Under the pieces are notes generated by a model. The model was not told the origin of the DNA and searched no databases. It worked only from the letters and a program-made list of their open reading frames with translations. 64,000 nt of DNA, taken from Balamuthia mandrillaris (lineage: Eukaryota). A program made the translations under genes and the position numbers. The stretch spans positions 558,001 to 622,000 of the forward strand of contig JAVKOQ020000001.1 of assembly GCA_031835245.2 (NCBI GenBank). Reading direction: 5' to 3'. This document shows, piece by piece, positions 3,014 through 54,054 of this stretch (within the stretch, counting starts at the first letter, position 1; every line of letters begins with the position of its first letter).

Positions 3014-5569
3014 TTATTGCATGGACCAATCGAACGGTCGGAACGCTTTTTTAAAGTCCTTGGCCAGCTGCACCTCCTCTTCTTTGGTTAGCACGCACTG
3101 CCGCCAGTCTGCCTTTTCTGGTTGTCCCATCAAAGCGGCCGCTATCTCCCTTTTTGGTTTGGGAAATGCCCAACGAAAAGCCAGAGGACAGAAAATGTTA
3201 ATTTTTTGCAAAGAAGAAGAACAAGAAGAAGAGGGACGATAAGAACGAGAAAACGAACCTTCCCAAATTCATCGATATCTTCTTCTCTCCAACAAGATGC
3301 AAAAAGGCATCATGCATGGGAGTCTCCCACAAGAAATACGGACGTCCTTTCGTCACGCTCCGCAAAGCCATCCACCCTTTCTCTTCTCCTCCACCTTCTC
3401 CTCCTCCTTCCAAGTTCAACGGTCTCAATTCCAGCTCTCTCTTTGTGGCTTCTTCCTCAAAGAAGGGACCGGCTCGCTCCGCATCCTCGTTTCTCGAGAG
3501 GGGGATGACTTGCACGTGGCAATGATGATTGGAGTGAAGAAAACGTTCAAAGCAAACCATGCCCTTGTAGCCTTTGCTCTCTTCAAAGAAACGCCGCAGA
3601 GAGTGCTTGTACCGTTGAATCTCTTGGATGACTGCAGGGGGAAGAGAGGCCACGCTGCTGACGTGGTCGATGGGAATGATGAGGACATGGTCAGGAGAGA
3701 GACCGCCTTTGGCAAGTGCCACGTAGACCGTTTCTCCCACGCTTACCACTAGATGCTTTTCGACTTTAGGACTCTTTAAGCAGAACCAACAGTCGCTTCC
3801 TCCTCTGTCGCCTCTTCTGTCAGCAGAATCTCTGTCTCGCCGTTCTCTACCTCCTCTTTCTTCTTGGTCATTGTATGTTCTCTGTCGTTTTGTGGGCGAT
3901 GGATCAGGGAGTAATCCTTCACCAGCTCTTCCTCTATCATCCCTTCTATAATAATTGGAATCACCGCCTCTTCCGCCTCTTCCTCCTCGAGGAGGTGGTG
4001 CTTGAAGATTCCAACGATAGGCAGCAACACTGTCTTCATCCGCTGCTTCGCTTTGTTTTTGTTGTGAAAGAGCAGACGACGAATTTACTTCTTCGTGATA
4101 GGGAGATGGAGTCGTGTTGGGTGGCGGTCGGATCATGTCTGGTGGTGTTGGGACCACAGATAAAGGAGTTAAACTCGCTGCATAGAAAAACTGTTGTGAC
4201 GTTAGTTGACAAACAACGAAGAGAAAGACGGAAGAACAAGAACAACAACAAGAAAGTACCCTCTGTTTAAGCTTGTTGCCAAGGTAGCCAAGGCCAAAGA
4301 AGCGTGTAACACGCGAAGAGGGGCTGCGATAAGGAGGCCGCTCGTAGAATATGTTTTCGTTTCCTGCAAAGTGATATCGAGGCTGCAATATTTTGGCTAT
4401 CTCAGCTGTGGCCGAGGAACCTATACCTACAACAGATAACAGGTTGGCAGCGACGCTTTGTTGGTCTTTGCTTACTTGTTGCTGCTGAGGTAGTTTGGGG
4501 TAATCAGCTTCTCTATTAAGGACAATAACTGTGTGAATGAGCGAGAAGCCAGCAGATCAAAGAGAGAAGAGAAGAAAAGAGAGAAGGGACTGAAGAATGC
4601 AAATAGAAATGGAAAAGAGAAGAGAAGAGGTGAGAAAATAAAGGGTAACCGACTTGAGATTCTTTAAAGAGCCACTTGGCCAGTGCGTCGTTAAAAGCAC
4701 ATCCACATCAACGCATTCGCAAAGCCATGCTTTACTCTTATCATCTGAGTCACAAACAATTGCATTAGTTTCTCTGTTGTGAGTCTTCATTCAAGCACAT
4801 AGATGAGAGAACGAAGAGAGGAATGCACAAAGGAGGAGAAGAAACACGTACCAAGTGGTGAGTCCATGTTGCTGCGGAGCGTGGCAAAATAAGCCACATT
4901 CAGGCCAGAGACTTGGATGTTTCCATAGCCACCTTTTTTTTAAACAACCGTCAGAGAAGAGCAACCAAAGCGAGAGAAGCAGAGAAGAGTAAGAGAGAAT
5001 GAGAGAGAGAGAGTGAGAGTAAGAAGTGAAACAAGCAGATGAGAGAGAACCACACGTACCCAACTTGGTGATATTTTCACACAAAGGTTCGTCTCCAAGG
5101 GAGGTGCCGTCCAAAAAGAAGGTCGGCAAAGGGGCTGGTGGAAAAAAATGCGTACATAAGCGCAAGAGCAAAGAGCTTGTTCAGAGGGCAGCATGAGAGG
5201 AGGCGTACCTCGTTTCTGGCCGCTGATGTATTCCTTCAGCTCAGCGTTGTTGTTGGCCTCCGCCTGCAGAAACGTGCCCACGCAAAAGAGCGCAGCAAAG
5301 GGACCCGCCTTCCGGTTCAATGGCTCCACTTTGGCAAAGAGCTGATGGATCTGGCCGTTCACATCGCCGCACACCAAACTGATGCGCAGTGAAGACAAGA
5401 AAAGAGAGAGAGAGAGAGAGAGAGAGAGGTTGTTGTGAAAAAGTCAGCTGTCGTCCGTACTGCAGGAGGAAAACAACCACAACCACAAAGTGCAGCAAGA
5501 GAAGAGGAGGAGGAGCAGCAGCAGAAGGAGAAGAAGAAGGAGAAGAAGAAGAAGAAGAAGAAGAAGAAG

Positions 5570-9405: not shown

Positions 9406-11420
9406 CTAATCTTCGAAAGTGACCACGGGGGGTGGGCGGCCGTGCAGGCATCGCGGATCATGTATGCAGGCGCTCGTATCAAGGCAGTGGTTGTGCGAGC
9501 GGCTCACCTCTTGAGACTCGACGTGGAGATGAGCCCTGCGACAGCACTCCTTTCGTTTGCAGAGATGAGTTACTTCTTGCACAACCTCATCTTTTGCGGC
9601 ACAAAAGATAAGGTGAGTTCTCAGCATGAGAATGAGAGGAGAGACTGAGACTGGGAAACCAGAGAGAACAAGAAGGCTTGAAGATGAATACCATGTCTTG
9701 CAGCTGGTAAGAGGTAGCTCTCTCCATGCGCTACTATCACAGCCTGGTCGAGGGGAATGATTATTCCGTCGGTGATGTGGATGGTGGGATAAGCGTTCCG
9801 GGGTTGGGGAGCAGCTGCCAGACGGCATACCCCGTTGTGGTCCACTGCTTGGAGACGCCCTTCGCTTAGCCAAGCATTAAGCGTTCTCGATGTCTCCTCC
9901 AATGAGGCCTGGAGCGCATTGGTCATCGGCAACGTTGCCGGGCCAAAGCTGTCTCGGTTTCGTAAGACGATGACCTCTTCCATGAGTGCGCAGCGAATGC
10001 AAATTTGGAATCTTGGTGGAAGGGTTTCGAAAGGCAGGAGATAATATGTTTGACGGCCAGCCTTGAGCGTCTTACCGAATATATTTCCGTTACGAGAGCG
10101 GGTCAACTGGTGGGTGACGTTACCTCTGGTAACCGGCTCTGGTCGCCGGCGCCCACATTGTTGGAAATAGGCATCTCTTAGAGCGTTCAAGCTCCTCCAC
10201 ACTTCTTTTGAGCCAATGCTAGTCTCCTCGTTTGTGGCTGGCCACTTGAACAGCACCCATGCTGTCCAGACTCCCCCAGCCCATCGTAGATTTGTGTCTG
10301 GCATGAAGCCACTCCCAAGCAGAGGTGATGAATCTGAAGCAGATGAAGATGGAGAAGAACGTGGAGAAATAGATCTTGCAGCCGAGAGAGCTACAGCATG
10401 AGTAGTCTCAGCTGTGGTCGAAGGTGAATTAGAAGAAGCGGCTGGGCAAGCAGCAGCAGGAGAAGAAGAAGGCGATGAAGCAGAAGCACAAGAAGAAAAT
10501 GAGCAGCCAGATGTCCATAATAATAGTGGATCATCTTCGTCGTTTTCTTCTATCGCTTTTTTCAAAGGTGATGAAGAAGAAGAAGATGGAAATGAAAAAG
10601 AAGAAGAAGAAGAACAAGATGAAGATGAAGAACAAGAAGAAGAAGAAGAAGAACAAGAAGAACCAGAAATACAAGAGGACGGAAGGCTATGAGAAGGAAA
10701 GATTGGACAGGAGCATCTGCGTGCATATTCTTGAACTCGAGAAGGCATCAAAATTGAAACCAGGTCGCCTCGTACCAGTTCTTCTTGTCCGTCTCTCAAT
10801 TGCACCTTGAAATATAAGGAATCCTCGGTCTGTCCAGCCACCGCTTGAGCGTGATCGTTCAATATCCTTACTGCGTGCTTGTGTTCCATGGGACTGAGCG
10901 GTTTGTATGTTTCTTTAGTAGATTCGACTGGTATACCATTGCAAAGCTGAGAAAGGGAGTCAGCCTAACAAGCTAGAGGTTTAAAGAACAACGAAGACAA
11001 ACATGAATAGACCAAGGAAGAAAAATTTAAAATGAATGTAAGAAGGAAAGAATTCCAACCATCCTTCGGTGGAAGCGCCTCTGGTGTTATAGTTGTTTGT
11101 TTGGTTAATGGAGTTGTCTGTTTTTGAGGAACTGTTGTTATTGTGACTCTTTGCCTGTGTTTTGATGATATTCAGGGTGACCTGCGATCAGGGAAACACA
11201 GGCTTAGATAATAAGAACAGGACCAAATCGAAAACCACAAACAATACAACATTAAACATACACTAGAGTCAAAGTGGTGCAGTTCAGGTGGTTCCAACTT
11301 TGTAGGCTCGACTTTGAAGGACGCTTTGTTGCGTTTATTCCTCGGAGAGGCTTTCTCATCTTATTCGTCATCACTGTCCTCTATAACGATGATGTCCCTT
11401 TTTGTGTTCCGTTTATCCAT
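9406..11420 (-). pseudogene. Spliced gene (possibly inactivated) with chromo-like segments and a C-terminal His-Cys box (His-Me finger) endonuclease-like domain
   Basis: ORF 10889-9692 splices (intron 9691-9591, GT..AG, frame kept) to DEVVQEVTHLCKRKECCRRAHLHVESQEVSRSHNHCLDTSACIHDPRC; putative first exon from ATG 11420 has an in-frame TAA at 11363-11361; upstream exon boundaries uncertain. Confidence 0.7.
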
Positions 11421-11514
11421 CCCCTGCCCTCTCTCTTCAGTAGTCAATCGTTGTTGACAACAGAAACGAAACGACGCAGTGCTCTTAGAGTGGTCAAAAA
11501 TAAAACACAGAAGG

Positions 11515-11831
11515 TACACCGACTTTTACTCCTCTAAAGAGCACGCCACTAACGTTGGCACCATGTTCCGTGGAGCTGAGAACGCTCTTATGCCCAATTG
11601 GTACTTTTTTTTTGTAACATTAGTTATTTGTAGTAGCTACTGCCTGCTGTATAAATGACTTTACTTGCCTCTTATCACAGGCTTCACTTGCCAGTTGGTT
11701 ATCATGGCCGCGCCTCTTCTGTTGTGGTCAGCGGTACCCCTATTAGAAGACCTGTGGGACAGACAAGACCGCAAGATGACCAACCTCCTGTCTTTGGTCC
11801 CTGTAAATTGCTTGACTTTGAGCTGGAAATG
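11515..11831 (+). pseudogene. FAH: Internal fragment of fumarylacetoacetase (two exons and one intron)
   Basis: [29 protein letters not shown] | [35 protein letters not shown]; no N- or C-terminal FAH exons nearby. Confidence 0.9.
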
Positions 11832-11871
11832 GTATTTTTAAACCCTTTTCTTTCCTCTTGCTGCTCTCCCT

Positions 11872-11913
<42 letters not shown>

Positions 11914-12075
11914 GTATCCACGTTATAAGCATTTGGAGAGAACGTGCTTGTATGCAAGTTCCTTGCTCCTTGTGTTACGCTTGTGGATTAAAATGATGCA
12001 CCACGCTGGAGACCTTTACCAGGTCTTATCTGCTTCTCCACGGGAAATTTTTACTTTTGGAGATATGTTGTTCGA

Positions 12076-12371
12076 GCCCGACCATGCTCACCTGGTCCCA
12101 CTATCGCTTCAGGCAGAGGCTCCTCAACAAGGCCCAGCAATTTCCGTCCTGTACGGTCTGCCTCTGCGATGAGGAATACACCTCCAAGACCTGCGGCAAG
12201 TGCGGCCAAGTCCACCACCAGTTGGGGGGAAACAAGACCTTTCGGTGCCCCCAACCCGAGTGTGGCTACCAGGCGGATCGAGATGCCAACGCCGCCCGAA
12301 ACATCTTGATCCGCTTTTTCACTTTACAAGCACTTACCACCTCCTCCTCCTCCTCTGTGAGGGGGCGGTAG
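12076..12371 (+). mobile_element. 3' remnant of a Fanzor2/IS607-type TnpB gene (zinc finger plus RuvC-III)
   Basis: MLTWSHYRFRQRLLNKAQ..DEEYTSKTCGKCG..FRCPQPECGYQADRDANAARNIL; N-terminal part including RuvC-I/II is missing. Confidence 0.9.
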
Positions 12372-12547
12372 GCGGTAAGGTTGCTTTGGTGCCGGCACCG
12401 TTGCTTATAGCGAGTCGTAAGACAAGCCGTGATTAGGCACGCCGGAGGTGGTGGGTTATTTTTTGTTTCTCTGTTTTTTGTTTTCCTTTTACTAATTTTG
12501 CTTTATTTTCGTTGTCCCATGGATCGGCTTGATCTTGGCGCCGCCTT
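12361..12547 (+). ncRNA. Candidate Fanzor omegaRNA scaffold / element right end
   Basis: Directly 3' of the TnpB stop; complementary segments 12370-12376/12540-12546 and 12419-12429/12525-12536; palindrome GGTGCCGGCACC 12388-12399. Confidence 0.5.
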
Positions 12548-12710
12548 AGAAGGTACACAGAAAAAAGGAAAAGCAAAAGAGTTTTTAGGGAATCGAGCTG
12601 GGGCTATAAATGTCTCAAAGGCCATAGAGGTCGTGCTAAGAAAAAGGGGACACCCGCCAACCCCCTCCCCTTACCATTTGGCTCAATTAATTGGCCTTTT
12701 TTGGGCATTG

Positions 12711-14369
12711 TCACAAAGTCACCGCTTCGCAGCTGGCGGCAGGGCCTATGTCCAACACGGCGTAGCGTTTCTCGATGGAGGAAGAGCTGGAAGAAAGGAG
12801 ATCCACCAGATAGCGGCCCACCTCTTCATAGCTGCTCTCGGCAAGGGCAAGAATGGTTGATCCGCTTCCTGACAGACAAACTCCCAACAATCCTTGCGGC
12901 AGGGGGGAAGATGGGGAGGAACAAGGAGAGGAGAGAAGGTGGTTCAGAGCCAAGCAACGATCAAAGCCAGGAACTTGAATGGAGATACGGTAGGGTTGAT
13001 GGAGCTTGTCTTTAAGGCATTCACTGATGCGATGTCGGTCAAGGGAGCTCAATGCTGATACAAAGGAAACTGCCCTTTGCAGATTGTAAACCTGATTTTA
13101 CGTTAAAACGAGCGGGCAAACAAACGTTAGTATTGCTTAAAATGTAAGCCCTCTTTTTTCCTCTCTTCTTTTCTACTTTCAAGAAGAAAGAGAGAGAAAA
13201 AAAAGAAAGAGAAATAGCACATACCACATCCCCTCGAGGATAAGATGGAGGCAACGCTTTCCGCGCTTTGGCAGTTGATACTTCAAACTCTGGTATGATC
13301 ACAACTGCTTTCAACTCACGTTGCCTATCCTCCTTCGCCGCAACAGGAATGGCGTTACACCATACTCGACGTTTGCTCTTTTCATGACTGTCCTCCCTGT
13401 TGTTGTTGCTTTCTCCTTCTTCTGTCTCGACACAACAACATGAAACAACGCCGCCACACAAGCTTGCTCCAACGTTGTCGGGATGACCTTCTATCTCGGT
13501 GGCATATCGAAGCAGCTCCTCCCTTGACAGTCTGAGCTCCAGCAGCTCATTCGCAAGCAACACTCCCGCAACAGCAGCACTGCCGCTGCTGCCCAATCCT
13601 CTTGAGAAGGGGATCTCGTTGTGGATCTCAAGACGCACTTCTTCTAACATCTTTGGACGATGTTCTTGTTGTTGGATGACGTGAAGAGCGGAGGTCCAGA
13701 TGAGATTCGTTTCGTTCAAAGGAGCTGATTCTTGGCCTAAACCAGAGAAGCGAATGTCTAGCTTTGGTTGGTGTCTGCTGTGAGGTACTTGATTTAAGTC
13801 CGCCTGCTTTTTGTACGTGGCGGTCACTGTAACAGTTAGGAATAAACCCAGCGCCATTCCAAAAGTATCAAAGCCAGGCCCTTGTTTTATTTATAGTGTG
13901 AAGGTTAACATGAGAGAGAAACCAGGTTTTAAGGAAAACAAACCTAAATTGGCGGAAGAACCAGGAACTCGTATACGAAAATGTTTCACGTTGGCAGTAC
14001 TGCTGGACGAAGAAGCAGACAACTGCTCTTCCATTAACTGTTTGAGACGATCAGCATCCTTGTAAAGCTTATGAGCACGCGAGGGAAGATGCATGACTGC
14101 CTCCAATGCTGGTGGATTGGTTGGCTTGCAACCAATGGCCTTCTCCACTGCGTCGGGGAACTTTGCTGGATGGGCGGTGGCAAGACATATTATTGGTGTG
14201 TTTCTTGAGAGTATGTTCTCTTGAAGGAGTTGAATGGCAGCACTAACTCCCACAGCAGAGTGTGGGCAAAGCACATAAGAGTTCTGCTTATAAATTGAAG
14301 CAATTGTTCCCAGCGTTTGCGTTTCTTTTTTTATTTGTTTGTTTAAGGAGAAAGGTAAGGAGAAGGTAA

Positions 14370-14452
<83 letters not shown>

Positions 14453-14698
14453 GAAAGAGAGAGAGAGAGAGAGAGCAAATACCAGTGATAGCAAGCGCGG
14501 AGATCAGGGTGCGAGCACGTTCAAGGATCTGTGGTGAAACGGAAACCTTTCCGTTAGACTTGAATTCATTCATTACATCCTTGACCTGTTTGGCATCCTC
14601 TTGGCTCATGTGATACAGAAAACGTTCAAAGTTGCTGGCCACTAAACATAAAAACAAGATGCAACAAAGATTCCCAATTAAAATGACGCCCGAAATAT

Positions 14699-14740
<42 letters not shown>

Positions 14741-16041
14741 GAGAGGGAGAGAAACCTTGAATGTCCATGGAAGGAGTGATGGTTGGCTGCACTTCTTGTG
14801 CTGCATAAGTTCCAGTCTCAAAAAACCGGAACAAGATGCTTTCAAGTGAAGAGAGAGGAAGCAAAGAAGGAGAACGAACAGAGAGGTCAATGATGGCGCA
14901 ACATTAAGCGTAACAAAGTGCGTACTCGTTTTGGTTGGTGGCAACAATAAGCCGGTGAATAGGCAATCCCATTCTCTTGGCATAATAACCAGCAAGCACG
15001 TTACCAAAATTACCGGTGGGAACAGCAAAGCTTACTTTTCTCTTTTCTTTCTGGTCTACTACAGATGTGACCTTAACGTGAAATGATGAGAAACATGTTT
15101 GATAGGGAGAGAGAAGATGCTCACTTGAAAGTAACAGTAAAAATAGTAAACTATCTGAGCAAGAATGCGAGCCCAATTAATGCTGTTGATAGCGGCAAGA
15201 TTGTGCTTTCGTTTGAAGGCAAGATCGTTGAACACGGCCTTCACCATGTCTTGGCAATCATCAAATGTGCCTTCCACTGTGCATTTTTCATTTCAGAAAA
15301 CTTGGAGAACGAAAGAATGAAGCAGGGAAAGAATGAAGCAGAACAGCAAGAAGGTAGAGAGAACCAGAGAAGCGCAGAGTACACTGAAACAAAAAGAAAG
15401 CATGGAAGAAGCGAGACAAGAAAGAGCATACCAGCAACATTGTGAACGTTGTGATCAGGAATAGTCGTCATTTGCTTCTCCTGCACAAGGCTGACCCTGC
15501 CATGAGGGTGCAAGATGAACACCTCTATGTTCCTCTTCCCTCTCAAGCCAGCCAGAGCAGCACTGCCTGTGTCTCCAGAGGTAGCGCCCAAGATGGTAAT
15601 GTCCTTTCTCTCTTCCTCCTTGTCGTCGAGCAGGAGAAACTCGAACAAGTTGCCAAGGAACTGAAGTGCTACGTCTTTAAATGAGAACGTGGGGCCATGA
15701 AACAGCTCTCCAACATAAACCACTTCTCCCTCTGTTCCATCCATATCAGCGGTGATAGATCGAACGTTAACCACATCCCAGGTGCTGTAGCTCTTCTGGA
15801 GGAGGCGCCTCAGCTGCTCTGCGGGGACGTCGCTCTCATCCACAAAGAGGGACATAACGGCAAAGGCCAGCTCGGCGAAGGGAAGGTTCCTCCAGCGGGA
15901 GAGCTCCGTGGCAACCTCTGGCCAGCTCTCGGGGACGAAGAGGCCGCCGTCGTCGGCCAGCCCACGCAGCACCACCGTACGAAAGGACCTGCCTTGGTCT
16001 CCTCCTCGTGTGCTGTTGTAACGGATCCTTCGCCCAGACAT
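12711..16041 (-). CDS. Threonine synthase - homoserine kinase fusion protein
   Basis: ThrC: YNSTRGG, GLADDGGLFVP, ELFHGPTFSFKDVAL, ATSGDTGSAA, PTGNFGN, ATAHPAKF; runs in one exon into ThrB IRVPGSSANLG|PGFD, IPFSRGLGSSG, EGHPDNV, LSGSGST. Confidence 0.93.
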
Positions 16042-16130
16042 GACACTGTGTTTGCTGCTACCTTTTTTCGCGTGTGTTGCTCGCGCGTGTTGGTGGTGGT
16101 GGTGGTGGTGGTGGAGGTGGTACGTAAAAA

Positions 16131-17100
16131 CTACCAAAAAAAAAAAGCAAAGCGGAGCAAAGCAGAGAGGCGTGACAGCCCGCAACGCACCCACCACACC
16201 CCGCCCAACCCAACTATTTTTGTTCCTGTCTTCTTGTCGTCTCTTTCCTTTGATTTTTTGTGTGTCGACGAAAATCTGACGTCATCCACAACCTGCCGGT
16301 TCGGTTCGGGTAGTGGCAAGGGGAGGACGATGCCCGCAGCTCGGCATCCATTCTTGCCTTGCTGCTCTACGTGCTGGAGGGGTTCCCAATCATGTGTAGA
16401 TCTCCTTTCTGCAGCTCGGTTGTTCTCACCGAAGACTTTGCTCGCCCGTGGCTTCAGTAACGTCATCTTCACCTTTCGTCAACGATGGCAATACGCAAGC
16501 TTTTCCCGTTGTGCGCTGAAGATACTGAGCTGAAGAAGTGCCTTTGGTTGAACCGATAACTGTCGGAAGGAATCTGTGACATGCCTACAGGTAGGGTGTA
16601 TAGCCAACGGTAGACTTTCCACCACCTCCAACAACAAGTTCGTGAGGTGAAAGTTTCCTGTTTCCACGAACACTTGCAGCACGAACCTAAACCGAGCAAG
16701 AAAGTTCATGGGAAGACGTTGGCAGTAGGACACATGTTCACGGGCTTGAGTGAGGAAAGAGGAGGCCAGTTGAATGGCGAGGTCCGTCTCTCCTCGAAGG
16801 AGATGGCACTTGGCTTGCAAAGCCGTGATGGACAGGGAAGTGTAGAAGAGGTAGTAGTTGGGGAGCGGTGCATTGGTGCGGTTGAAGCTCTCTGCTTCCA
16901 CCAACAGCTGGGACATAGAAAGAAGCAATGAAGCTAAAATGTGTCTGGCTTCGTGGTCATATGTACAACGATCCACTTCATCTGTCTCTTCCTCCACTTC
17001 CGTTCGCAGCGAAGATGTAGATGAAGAAAATCCTGAAGCAGGTGGACAGGAGCGGGTTGAACCAGCGAGAGACACACAACAAAGGGCACATTGTGGTGGG
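16131..17100 (-). pseudogene. 5'-truncated, frameshifted paralog of the 17976-19975 gene
   Basis: LASLLLSMSQLLVE..YYLFYTSLSITALQAKCHLLRGETD..VFVETGNFHL..SFRQL is nearly identical to the neighbour; the N-terminal half is absent. Confidence 0.7.
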
Positions 17101-44918: not shown

Positions 44919-53369
<8,451 letters not shown>

Positions 53370-54054
53370 TTGCTTTAGATCACGCACACCCAGTGTCAAA
53401 ACGGAGCTTCTGTTTTTTTTTTTTATTTTGTTCGGACATTCGAAGGTCCGATTGAGTGTGAGTGAGCGAAAGCCAGATGACAGTGAGACAAACAACACCA
53501 CGATGGAACAAAAGAAGGCAAAGCCATACCAAAGAGAAAACCAAAAAAAAAAGATAGAGGGGGCCGAGCGGGACGGAGGAAGAGGAGTGAGGCACGGAAG
53601 AGGGTCTTTTTTTAAAAAAAAATGACAAAATGGCCACCAGCACCACCACCTTTCTCCTTCCAACAAAGAACGCAAATGAAAAAAAAAAAAACAAACTTGT
53701 CACTCCCCCATCGTACGTTGCAACACGTCAGCCCGGAGCGAAGGGGCGAAAATTCGTCGACGAAACTACCTTAAAAAGAAAAATTGAATCAGCTGCATTG
53801 TGTGGAGGCTGACGTCAGATAGTTTGAAAAAGAGGTGCTTATGTCATGTTTTACCTGTTTAAGATACATTACTTGAGGGTTCGTTCCTCCTTTCTTCCCC
53901 GTTCTGAAATTTTTTTTTTTCCGTCATTCTTTCTTTTCTTTTTTTTCTTTTTTTTCCTCTCTTTCTTTTGTCTTCAGCCCCACAAAGCTCAGCGGTGTCT
54001 ACGTGGTGACTTCCCCAAGCCTTCTCCTTACAAAAAAAAAAAGTTTAATCAACA

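Follow-up and report, generated by a model that had tools for sequence, protein, structure and literature searches.

A Fanzor2 tail joined to captured host DNA in a strain-polymorphic insertion of Balamuthia mandrillaris: a possible scar of RNA-guided homing

How did the tail of a Fanzor2 nuclease gene come to be joined to a piece of a host gene in Balamuthia mandrillaris? The locus that raises this question lies in a 64-kb stretch of DNA, the whole of which is here called the window; a first-pass annotation had described a Fanzor2/TnpB C-terminal remnant at 12076..12371. The fragment is indeed present there, while the feature to which it belongs is larger (11509-12558) and comprises a right end, a piece of the host gene for fumarylacetoacetase (FAH) and a target duplication, all of which had been overlooked. 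The new part is a scarred, polymorphic insertion around a genuine Fanzor2 fragment.

The Fanzor2 3' coding piece (12082..12371, forward strand) holds the final 95 codons of the nuclease gene, with the shifted RuvC-II glutamate, a C4 zinc finger, the RuvC-III aspartate and the stop, and without RuvC-I. The open reading frame 12084-12371 encodes MLTWSHYRFRQRL...EEYTSKTCGKCG...FRCPQPEC...DRDANAARNI; the Fanzor2-type C-terminal motifs previously read from the letters are present in this translation, and the GC-rich codons noted with them are confirmed by a GC content of 0.59 and a GC3 of 0.77, compared with about 0.47 for the window. The fragment matches the Pfam domain Cas12f1-like_TNB (E 4e-18), and its top PDB match is 9b0l, 'TnpB-like protein L79' (E 6e-11). 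The RuvC-II glutamate of Fanzor proteins is described as shifted, six residues ahead of the zinc finger (10.1101/2023.08.09.552727); here the stretch EEYTSKTCGKC at nt 12171 contains the RuvC-II Glu, then six residues, then the C4 zinc finger. The claim that this copy lacks both RuvC-I and RuvC-II holds for RuvC-I, whose DPG motif is absent, and fails for the shifted RuvC-II Glu (nt 12171), which is kept together with the RuvC-III Asp. The loss of RuvC-I bears out the conclusion that was drawn from it: judged by its sequence, the fragment itself cannot cut DNA.

Phylogenetic analysis was performed with FastTree on 191 of the 251 prepared rows, 60 database proteins being omitted. The remnant, which fills only 39% of the columns, forms one clade (99*) with the Balamuthia rows; this is nested in a clade of 147 rows (100*), including 40 viral and 3 cyanobacterial ones, and 44 other bacterial TnpB rows fall outside this Fanzor2/pro-Fanzor clade. 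One bacterial MAG row is placed inside it and the chosen outgroup is not a single clade. The grouping with the viral Fanzor2/pro-Fanzor clade, apart from canonical TnpB, agrees with the motifs in assigning the fragment to Fanzor2 of the IS607-derived clade, as first proposed. The genes of the window are eukaryotic, with introns and with RhoGAP, RapGAP, TCTP and mitochondrial carrier products (88 of the 100 window ORFs of at least 130 aa were domain-scanned, and 10 frames near the fragment were scanned separately), and the flanks of the fragment are contiguous in the runs of other strains. Thus, neither bacterial top matches nor a chimeric contig, which had been named as grounds for rejection, was found; the contig is that of the eukaryotic host, the motifs are genuine and of Fanzor2 type, and contamination is ruled out. 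Among the other contents of the window, genes for homoserine kinase and threonine synthase, which act one after the other in making threonine, adjoin on the same strand (12711-16281, reverse), and a multi-exon series of carbamoyl-phosphate synthase and carbamoyltransferase domains at 45315-53699 (reverse) is likely one CAD-like gene; no tRNA was found in the window.

No second copy of the element was detected in the 64 kb by blastn or tblastn; relatives occur elsewhere in the Balamuthia genome. A search for longer relatives gave 314 matches among 359 candidates, and the best 120 of the 314 were examined. One of them is named 'Transposase [Balamuthia mandrillaris]' and belongs to a cluster of 10 proteins that is confined to this species and spread over contigs of 10 different lengths; the fragment is 100% identical across 56 aa to the family protein P0130. 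The DPG of RuvC-I and the shifted RuvC-II Glu are found in 6 of the 10 annotated copies; an intact zinc finger together with RuvC-III is found in none of the 10, which counts against any reading that presumes an active family nuclease. Three annotated copies change frame at G or C runs near 12224-12253; since deletions at 12224 appear in run X1 and none is listed in X2, which comes from the same sample, these frame changes are likely sequencing errors. Read depth on the element in X2 reaches about 48-277 times that of the flanks at single positions, and less in X11 and X12; depth is no copy number, and these values are read only as 'many copies'. The element family is young and present in many copies in Balamuthia: the ten near-identical annotated copies, the high read depth and the empty sites in other strains support the recently active donor family that the first-pass annotation had supposed. 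No report of Fanzor in Balamuthia was found in the open-access literature; Balamuthia is absent from the readable supplementary tables of PMC10432273, which hold two Acanthamoeba Fz2 rows, and from two supplementary files of PMC10530073. When P0130 was used as sole query, no viral locus was matched.

The Fanzor2 tail and the host FAH copy lie within a 1,039-bp strain-specific insertion, composed of 560 bp of FAH, 7 filler bases and the last 468 bp of the element (12082-12549). It is flanked by an 11-bp direct repeat on the forward strand (AG followed by 9 nt; repeat family D9), with the left copy at 11509..11519 and the right copy at 12548..12558; from 12550 on, the sequence is native flank and, at the same time, predicted guide. 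Within the window the 11-mer is found only at 11509 and 12548, and the similarity can be extended to 13 of 14 nt. The last 5 nt of the left repeat (11515-11519) double as the start of the FAH piece and represent a microhomology, whose match extends to 7 of 8. The probability of such a repeat by chance is 4e-6 for the 9 nt, and 4e-3 for the 4 nt that remain without the FAH contribution. In two of four runs, X11 and X12, the left flank is joined to 12575, revealing the empty site in two other strains. Between 11491 and 12575, 42 letters remain in X11, which fits the 44 expected if one repeat copy is left, and X12 has 14 against 29 expected, which indicates that the X12 allele carries a further difference; since the site is empty in both strains, the insertion is recent and polymorphic.

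The apparent frameshift before MLTW is in fact a junction, and a frameshifted remnant decayed in place is not supported: the family copies join other letters at 12082, where loose ends occur in runs X1 and X3 and also in X2 and X9, and the DNA up to 12074 belongs to an FAH intron. Thus, the 3' 468 bp of the element are joined to captured FAH DNA through a 7-nt filler (12075..12081, forward strand), which covers the gap between the end of the FAH match at 12074 and the start of the family match at 12082; as a possible alternative to a filler junction, the Fanzor piece may come from a variant family copy that differs at 12076-12081 by a single substitution and a single deletion. It is very improbable that the site derives from an old full-length insertion that decayed in place, by a 5' deletion, an unrelated refill and a coincidental repeat, or that it is a mis-assembly. 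Such readings can draw on the fact that no record among those listed spans the full insertion or bridges the inner 12074/12082 junction, which is deduced from contig ends and depth, and that the contigs of the outer junctions cross by 30 and 17 letters, under the 31-letter rule. In a 31-mer graph it is the graph itself that sets where junction contigs end, and the left-junction contigs of three runs from two studies cross the junction and stop exactly at 11544, the stop that such a graph forces; moreover, contig ends and a twofold depth agree with the internal junction, the pieces are 98-100% identical to their sources, and the chance probabilities of the repeat given above (4e-6 to 4e-3) argue against coincidence. 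Contigs of X3, which are spliced and likely derive from RNA, enter the insertion from both neighbour genes (11100-11544 and 12533-12839), so that the insertion may now contribute to the 5' UTR of one neighbour and to the 3' UTR of the other; a second, divergent haplotype is present in X3 at 12713-12839.

The captured host DNA is a 560-bp copy of part of FAH (11515..12074, forward strand), with a 100% match to the exon stretches of the Balamuthia FAH models P0132 and P0251. It consists of a partial exon (11515-11600), an intron (11601-11680), an exon (11681-11831) and the next intron from 11832. Native FAH differs upstream of 11515, and the depth of the piece is 2-3 times that of the flanks in X1 and X2, two FAH models being known. 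The piece ends with a copy of an abundant small RNA of about 148 nt (11927..12074; likely forward strand if intron-encoded, since intronic small RNAs usually run in the sense of their host gene), which has discrete ends and a raw depth of about 180-560 per direction, compared with 1-7 on the FAH exons. Model P0251 includes a translation of 11930-12022 as a false exon, by which the small-RNA DNA is assigned to the next FAH intron; a composition of three donor pieces, considered at first, was dropped on this ground. Nearly all small-RNA reads have A at 11998, so that all but a few of them derive from other copies. Read variants differ before 11949/11951, and a second type diverges behind 11990, which points to a small family of such RNAs; a few reads return from 12072 to 11943, as circular or ligated forms. 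In Rfam, no family covers the small RNA (8 matches, E 0.6-10, all far under the gathering score), and its pattern had 0 matches in viral contigs.

The end of this RNA lies 2 nt past 12074, that is, the FAH piece ends at most 2 nt from it, and the FAH and Fanzor pieces have the same sense. Both features point to RNA templates, and an origin as a LINE-type retro-chimera fits them equally well. In that case no Fanzor cut would be involved: reverse transcription by a host enzyme would have started from a nick, with a Fanzor transcript as template, at or near the right end of the latter, and after 468 nt would have jumped to the 3' end of unspliced FAH RNA trimmed to the intronic small RNA, the 11-bp repeat being the target duplication. 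Same-sense pieces, a 5'-truncated 3' part, a filler and a short direct repeat are all among the listed features of LINE chimeras (PMC2104539), and the FAH piece ends, as just described, within 2 nt of an abundant RNA end. This origin, the main rival to a Fanzor-made break, is nevertheless somewhat unlikely: the FAH piece retains the intron 11601-11680, which is spliced out of mRNA reads, no reverse transcriptase was found among the 88 window ORFs scanned, and the right side of the insertion also speaks against it.

The right end (12372..12549, forward strand) is intact and contains a predicted omega-RNA scaffold and a terminal TTAG (12546-12549). Behind 12549, past the TTAG, family copies diverge in all four runs of one mapping and in both contig runs of a second. 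The boundary is sharp: neither donor flank nor a poly(A) or A-rich tail lies between TTAG and repeat, and the join falls exactly at the element boundary, whereas Fanzor guide RNAs, the supposed kind of transcript, extend beyond it. The 9 nt from 12550, which is the predicted guide base 1, recur at 11511. The fold of the right end is no better than that of shuffled sequences (z +1.14), and a weak, pseudoknot-like complement of 5 nt pairs 12376-12380 with 12544-12548. In a viral multi-copy Fanzor2 family (L141, L145, L148, L149; about 5050-5300), the elements end in ...TAACTTA, which complements a hairpin loop 91 nt past the RuvC-III motif, and the window has a weaker parallel at an offset of about 95. 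Comparison of the non-coding right end with 210 related loci revealed no DNA similarity above chance, its pattern had 0 matches in metagenome contigs, and a GGG-CCTA-CCC hairpin noticed in relatives (4 of 120 rows examined) is absent from the window. A role of the right end as a spliceosomal 3' splice site found no support, as no GT..AG joint ending at 12549 is listed, at an RNA depth there of only 0-3. In X21 and X22 no pile-up of read starts or ends indicative of guide-RNA expression occurs in the right end, and the flanks are almost readless. With right end and flank kept and the nuclease lost, the sequence suggests that the insertion could supply a 'ghost' guide RNA.

The leading explanation, at about even odds, is that the insertion is the scar of a break made by a Fanzor at its own target and repaired by aborted copying, with the cut, the TAM and the donor all presumed. 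According to this reading, a Fanzor RNP guided by the sequence to the right of the element would cut the element-free site about 9 or more bases in; the right broken end would then copy an element-bearing template, namely guide bases 9 to 1, the right end and the end of the ORF. Copying would drop off at 12082 and continue on FAH, either on the gene itself or on an unspliced transcript that ends at the intronic small RNA, and sealing to the unresected left end by a microhomology of 5-8 nt would leave the first 9 guide bases duplicated. The template may have been a filled allele or sister at the same site, or else a copy elsewhere whose flank matches. Such a repair should yield the target motif and the first guide bases, then the truncated element with its right end intact, then the guide once more, and this is the layout observed.

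Published data on Fanzor cutting are compatible with the size of the duplication, which begins at predicted guide base 1 and whose 9 nt are within the reported cut offsets. The guide of a Fanzor is described as the bases directly right of the element; for MmeFz2, a cut of the target strand after base 9-14 is reported, together with minimal activity of Fanzor guides of 7-10 nt (PMC10432273), and other Fanzor2 proteins cut the target strand at 15-21, for an overall range of 9-21 bases into the target. In favour of aborted homing are the sharp right end, the duplicated bases after TTAG, the empty sites and the host DNA captured at the truncated left side. Against it, the duplication is preceded by CAG, while family copies have TTAG at their ends; were TTAG the only target of the family, this site would be an invalid one. 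Insertion at TTAN is reported for mollusc Fanzor2 elements (10.1101/2023.08.09.552727), and in the comparison with Fanzor2* elements, which lie in transposons with terminal inverted repeats and a 4-nt TTAN duplication, the TTAG is constant at the right end, the left end being missing here. Neither a full-length nor an empty allele of the site appears among the matches listed for the carrier runs X1 and X2, and their left-flank contig passes unbroken into FAH at flank depth. The reading is drawn from one locus and, in the available text of PMC13565253, homing is listed as shown for bacterial TnpB/IscB and for no Fanzor.

A different origin of the exact right boundary would be a transposase. Serine-recombinase matches are found at 78 of the 210 related loci (including L001, L006, L007 and L081), and in L081:3316-5182, L006:226-1957 and L007:1-1032, which are close relatives, tnpA occupies a second frame over the initial 150-220 codons of the nuclease gene. 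Motifs of serine recombinases were used to scan for such overprinting: counting a protein only if two TnpA motifs fit together in a shifted frame, 3 of 3 overprinted controls and 4 of 9 other relatives qualify, and none of the 7 Balamuthia proteins does. The linked serine recombinase that the first-pass annotation had suggested looking for was not found: the six frames of the window contain none, the family proteins have none overprinted, and the best 120 of 1,038 TnpA matches include no protein from Balamuthia, the last being a weak result. From these sequences, the Balamuthia family has apparently lost the overprinted serine recombinase of its close relatives, with a separate tnpA elsewhere being possible. 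In the family model P0127, residues 4-25 resemble a C2H2 finger at the N-terminus, as read by the C2H2 spacing rule (Pfam zf-C2H2_4, E 0.068, below the cut-off); basic patches and an E/K-rich tract follow, in place of the tnpA-overprinted N-terminus of the relatives.

The hallmarks of IS607 are not seen at the locus, since an 11-bp repeat is present and the copies end in TTAG and not in a GG core. IS607-type elements are described as producing no TSD (PMC3627910); this finding, together with the lack of an overprinted TnpA, leaves ordinary IS607 transposition unable to explain the site. In a one-ended or aberrant event, a transposase supplied in trans, either an unlinked IS607 TnpA or some other enzyme, would have linked the right end with the AG of the target, and host repair would have resolved the other side by capturing FAH DNA. 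This would account for the precise junction at the right end and for the AG that both share; close relatives do have TnpA, and the CRe copies of Chlamydomonas were first interpreted as products of one-ended transposition (PMC3627910). Such an event is quite improbable, as serine recombination yields no 9-nt duplication and the searches for TnpA described above, including the weak one, were negative.

Aborted homing also bears on how a family apparently devoid of TnpA might spread. It is doubtful, although conceivable, that the family spreads without any transposase: with at least 100 guides, a match of 11-13 nt would lead to a cut, and the broken end would prime on the flank of a donor, giving an ectopic insertion. 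The primed template would be donor DNA or a guide-bearing RNA, and the right end would be copied with a short duplication. At a genome size of about 68 Mb, which we take to be that of Balamuthia, sites that combine a 3-nt TAM with 13 matches should number about 0.03 per guide, so that a large family should have several such targets. If the flank were unique, its contig should start at 12520; in X1, X2 and X3, which come from two studies, the right-flank contig starts at 12533 instead. This later start is a hint, and only that, of a second locus with the right end and 13 identical flank bases, or of a variant at 12532. A C variant at 12532 is present in X22 reads and has zero depth in X2, and chance sharing of 13 flank bases has a probability of about 3e-6 for 200 copies. 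If true, transposase-free spread would account for the lack of TnpA, for the precise right boundary, for a captured piece that stops at an RNA end and for the contig break at 12533; it would be a naturally occurring counterpart to target-primed editing.

What biological role Fanzor cutting plays is called unknown in published work (PMC13565253, PMC10432273, as far as their available text goes). A recent, strain-polymorphic insertion with a duplication that starts at guide base 1 is the footprint expected of cutting within cells, and since Balamuthia has many copies, and sequenced strains both carrying and lacking insertions, comparing genomes should by itself be enough to address the question. 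Moreover, the locus adds a Fanzor2 family apparently without TnpA and with its own right end, and illustrates a route for duplicating pieces of host genes and small-RNA genes. If the LINE-type origin were true, the insertion would be an ordinary retro-chimera of modest interest.

Among known systems, the family resembles Fanzor2/IS607EU elements (ApmFz2 9b0l, NlovFz2, MmeFz2; Acanthamoeba ACa-1/2) in its DPG RuvC-I, shifted RuvC-II Glu, C4 finger and RuvC-III, in its placement in the Fanzor2/pro-Fanzor clade and in a conserved non-coding right end of about 180 nt; unlike them, the copy at this locus consists of the 3' 468 bp only and has a duplication of 9-11 bp, a feature that IS607-type elements lack. 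The family also differs from them in having no overprinted TnpA, in ending in TTAG instead of the GG core described for IS607, and in the weakly supported C2H2-like start of P0127. TnpB restorative homing (IS605, IS607/IStron), described in PMC13565253 as demonstrated in bacteria only, is similar in that the right flank is the guide, and a cut empty site with a filled template would rebuild the element; there, the whole element is restored without a scar, whereas the Balamuthia copy is partial and scarred, and its cut is deduced. Fanzor 'ghost' loci (PMC10432273) likewise keep a guide-RNA region without a functional protein; those described keep both ends, whereas the Balamuthia locus has no left end and its guide is predicted. 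LINE template-switch chimeras (U6-L1; the Magnaporthe WEIRD-SINE-LINE, PMC2104539) share the same-sense pieces, the 5'-truncated 3' part, the short direct repeats and the end of an abundant small RNA at the junction, and differ from this insertion, which has no LINE part and no poly(A), keeps an intron and has its 3' end at the boundary of a DNA transposon. Finally, the Fanzor1 copies of the Chlamydomonas elements CRe-1/2/3 are 5'-truncated and 3'-intact, with duplications of 7-19 bp right after the target motif, and sometimes carry captured DNA; the pattern is reported in about 70% of CRe-1 copies, compared with 1 of 200 Fanzor-less Helitrons, and its cause is left open by Bao and Jurka (PMC3627910), while Craig tentatively proposes Fanzor cutting (PMC10288648). 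The Balamuthia locus shares with these Fanzor1-Helitron2 copies the 5' truncation, the intact 3' end, the short duplication after the motif and foreign DNA on the 5' side; conversely, it involves a Fanzor2 and no Helitron, it has an empty allele in other strains, and its captured piece can be traced to FAH, with microhomology.
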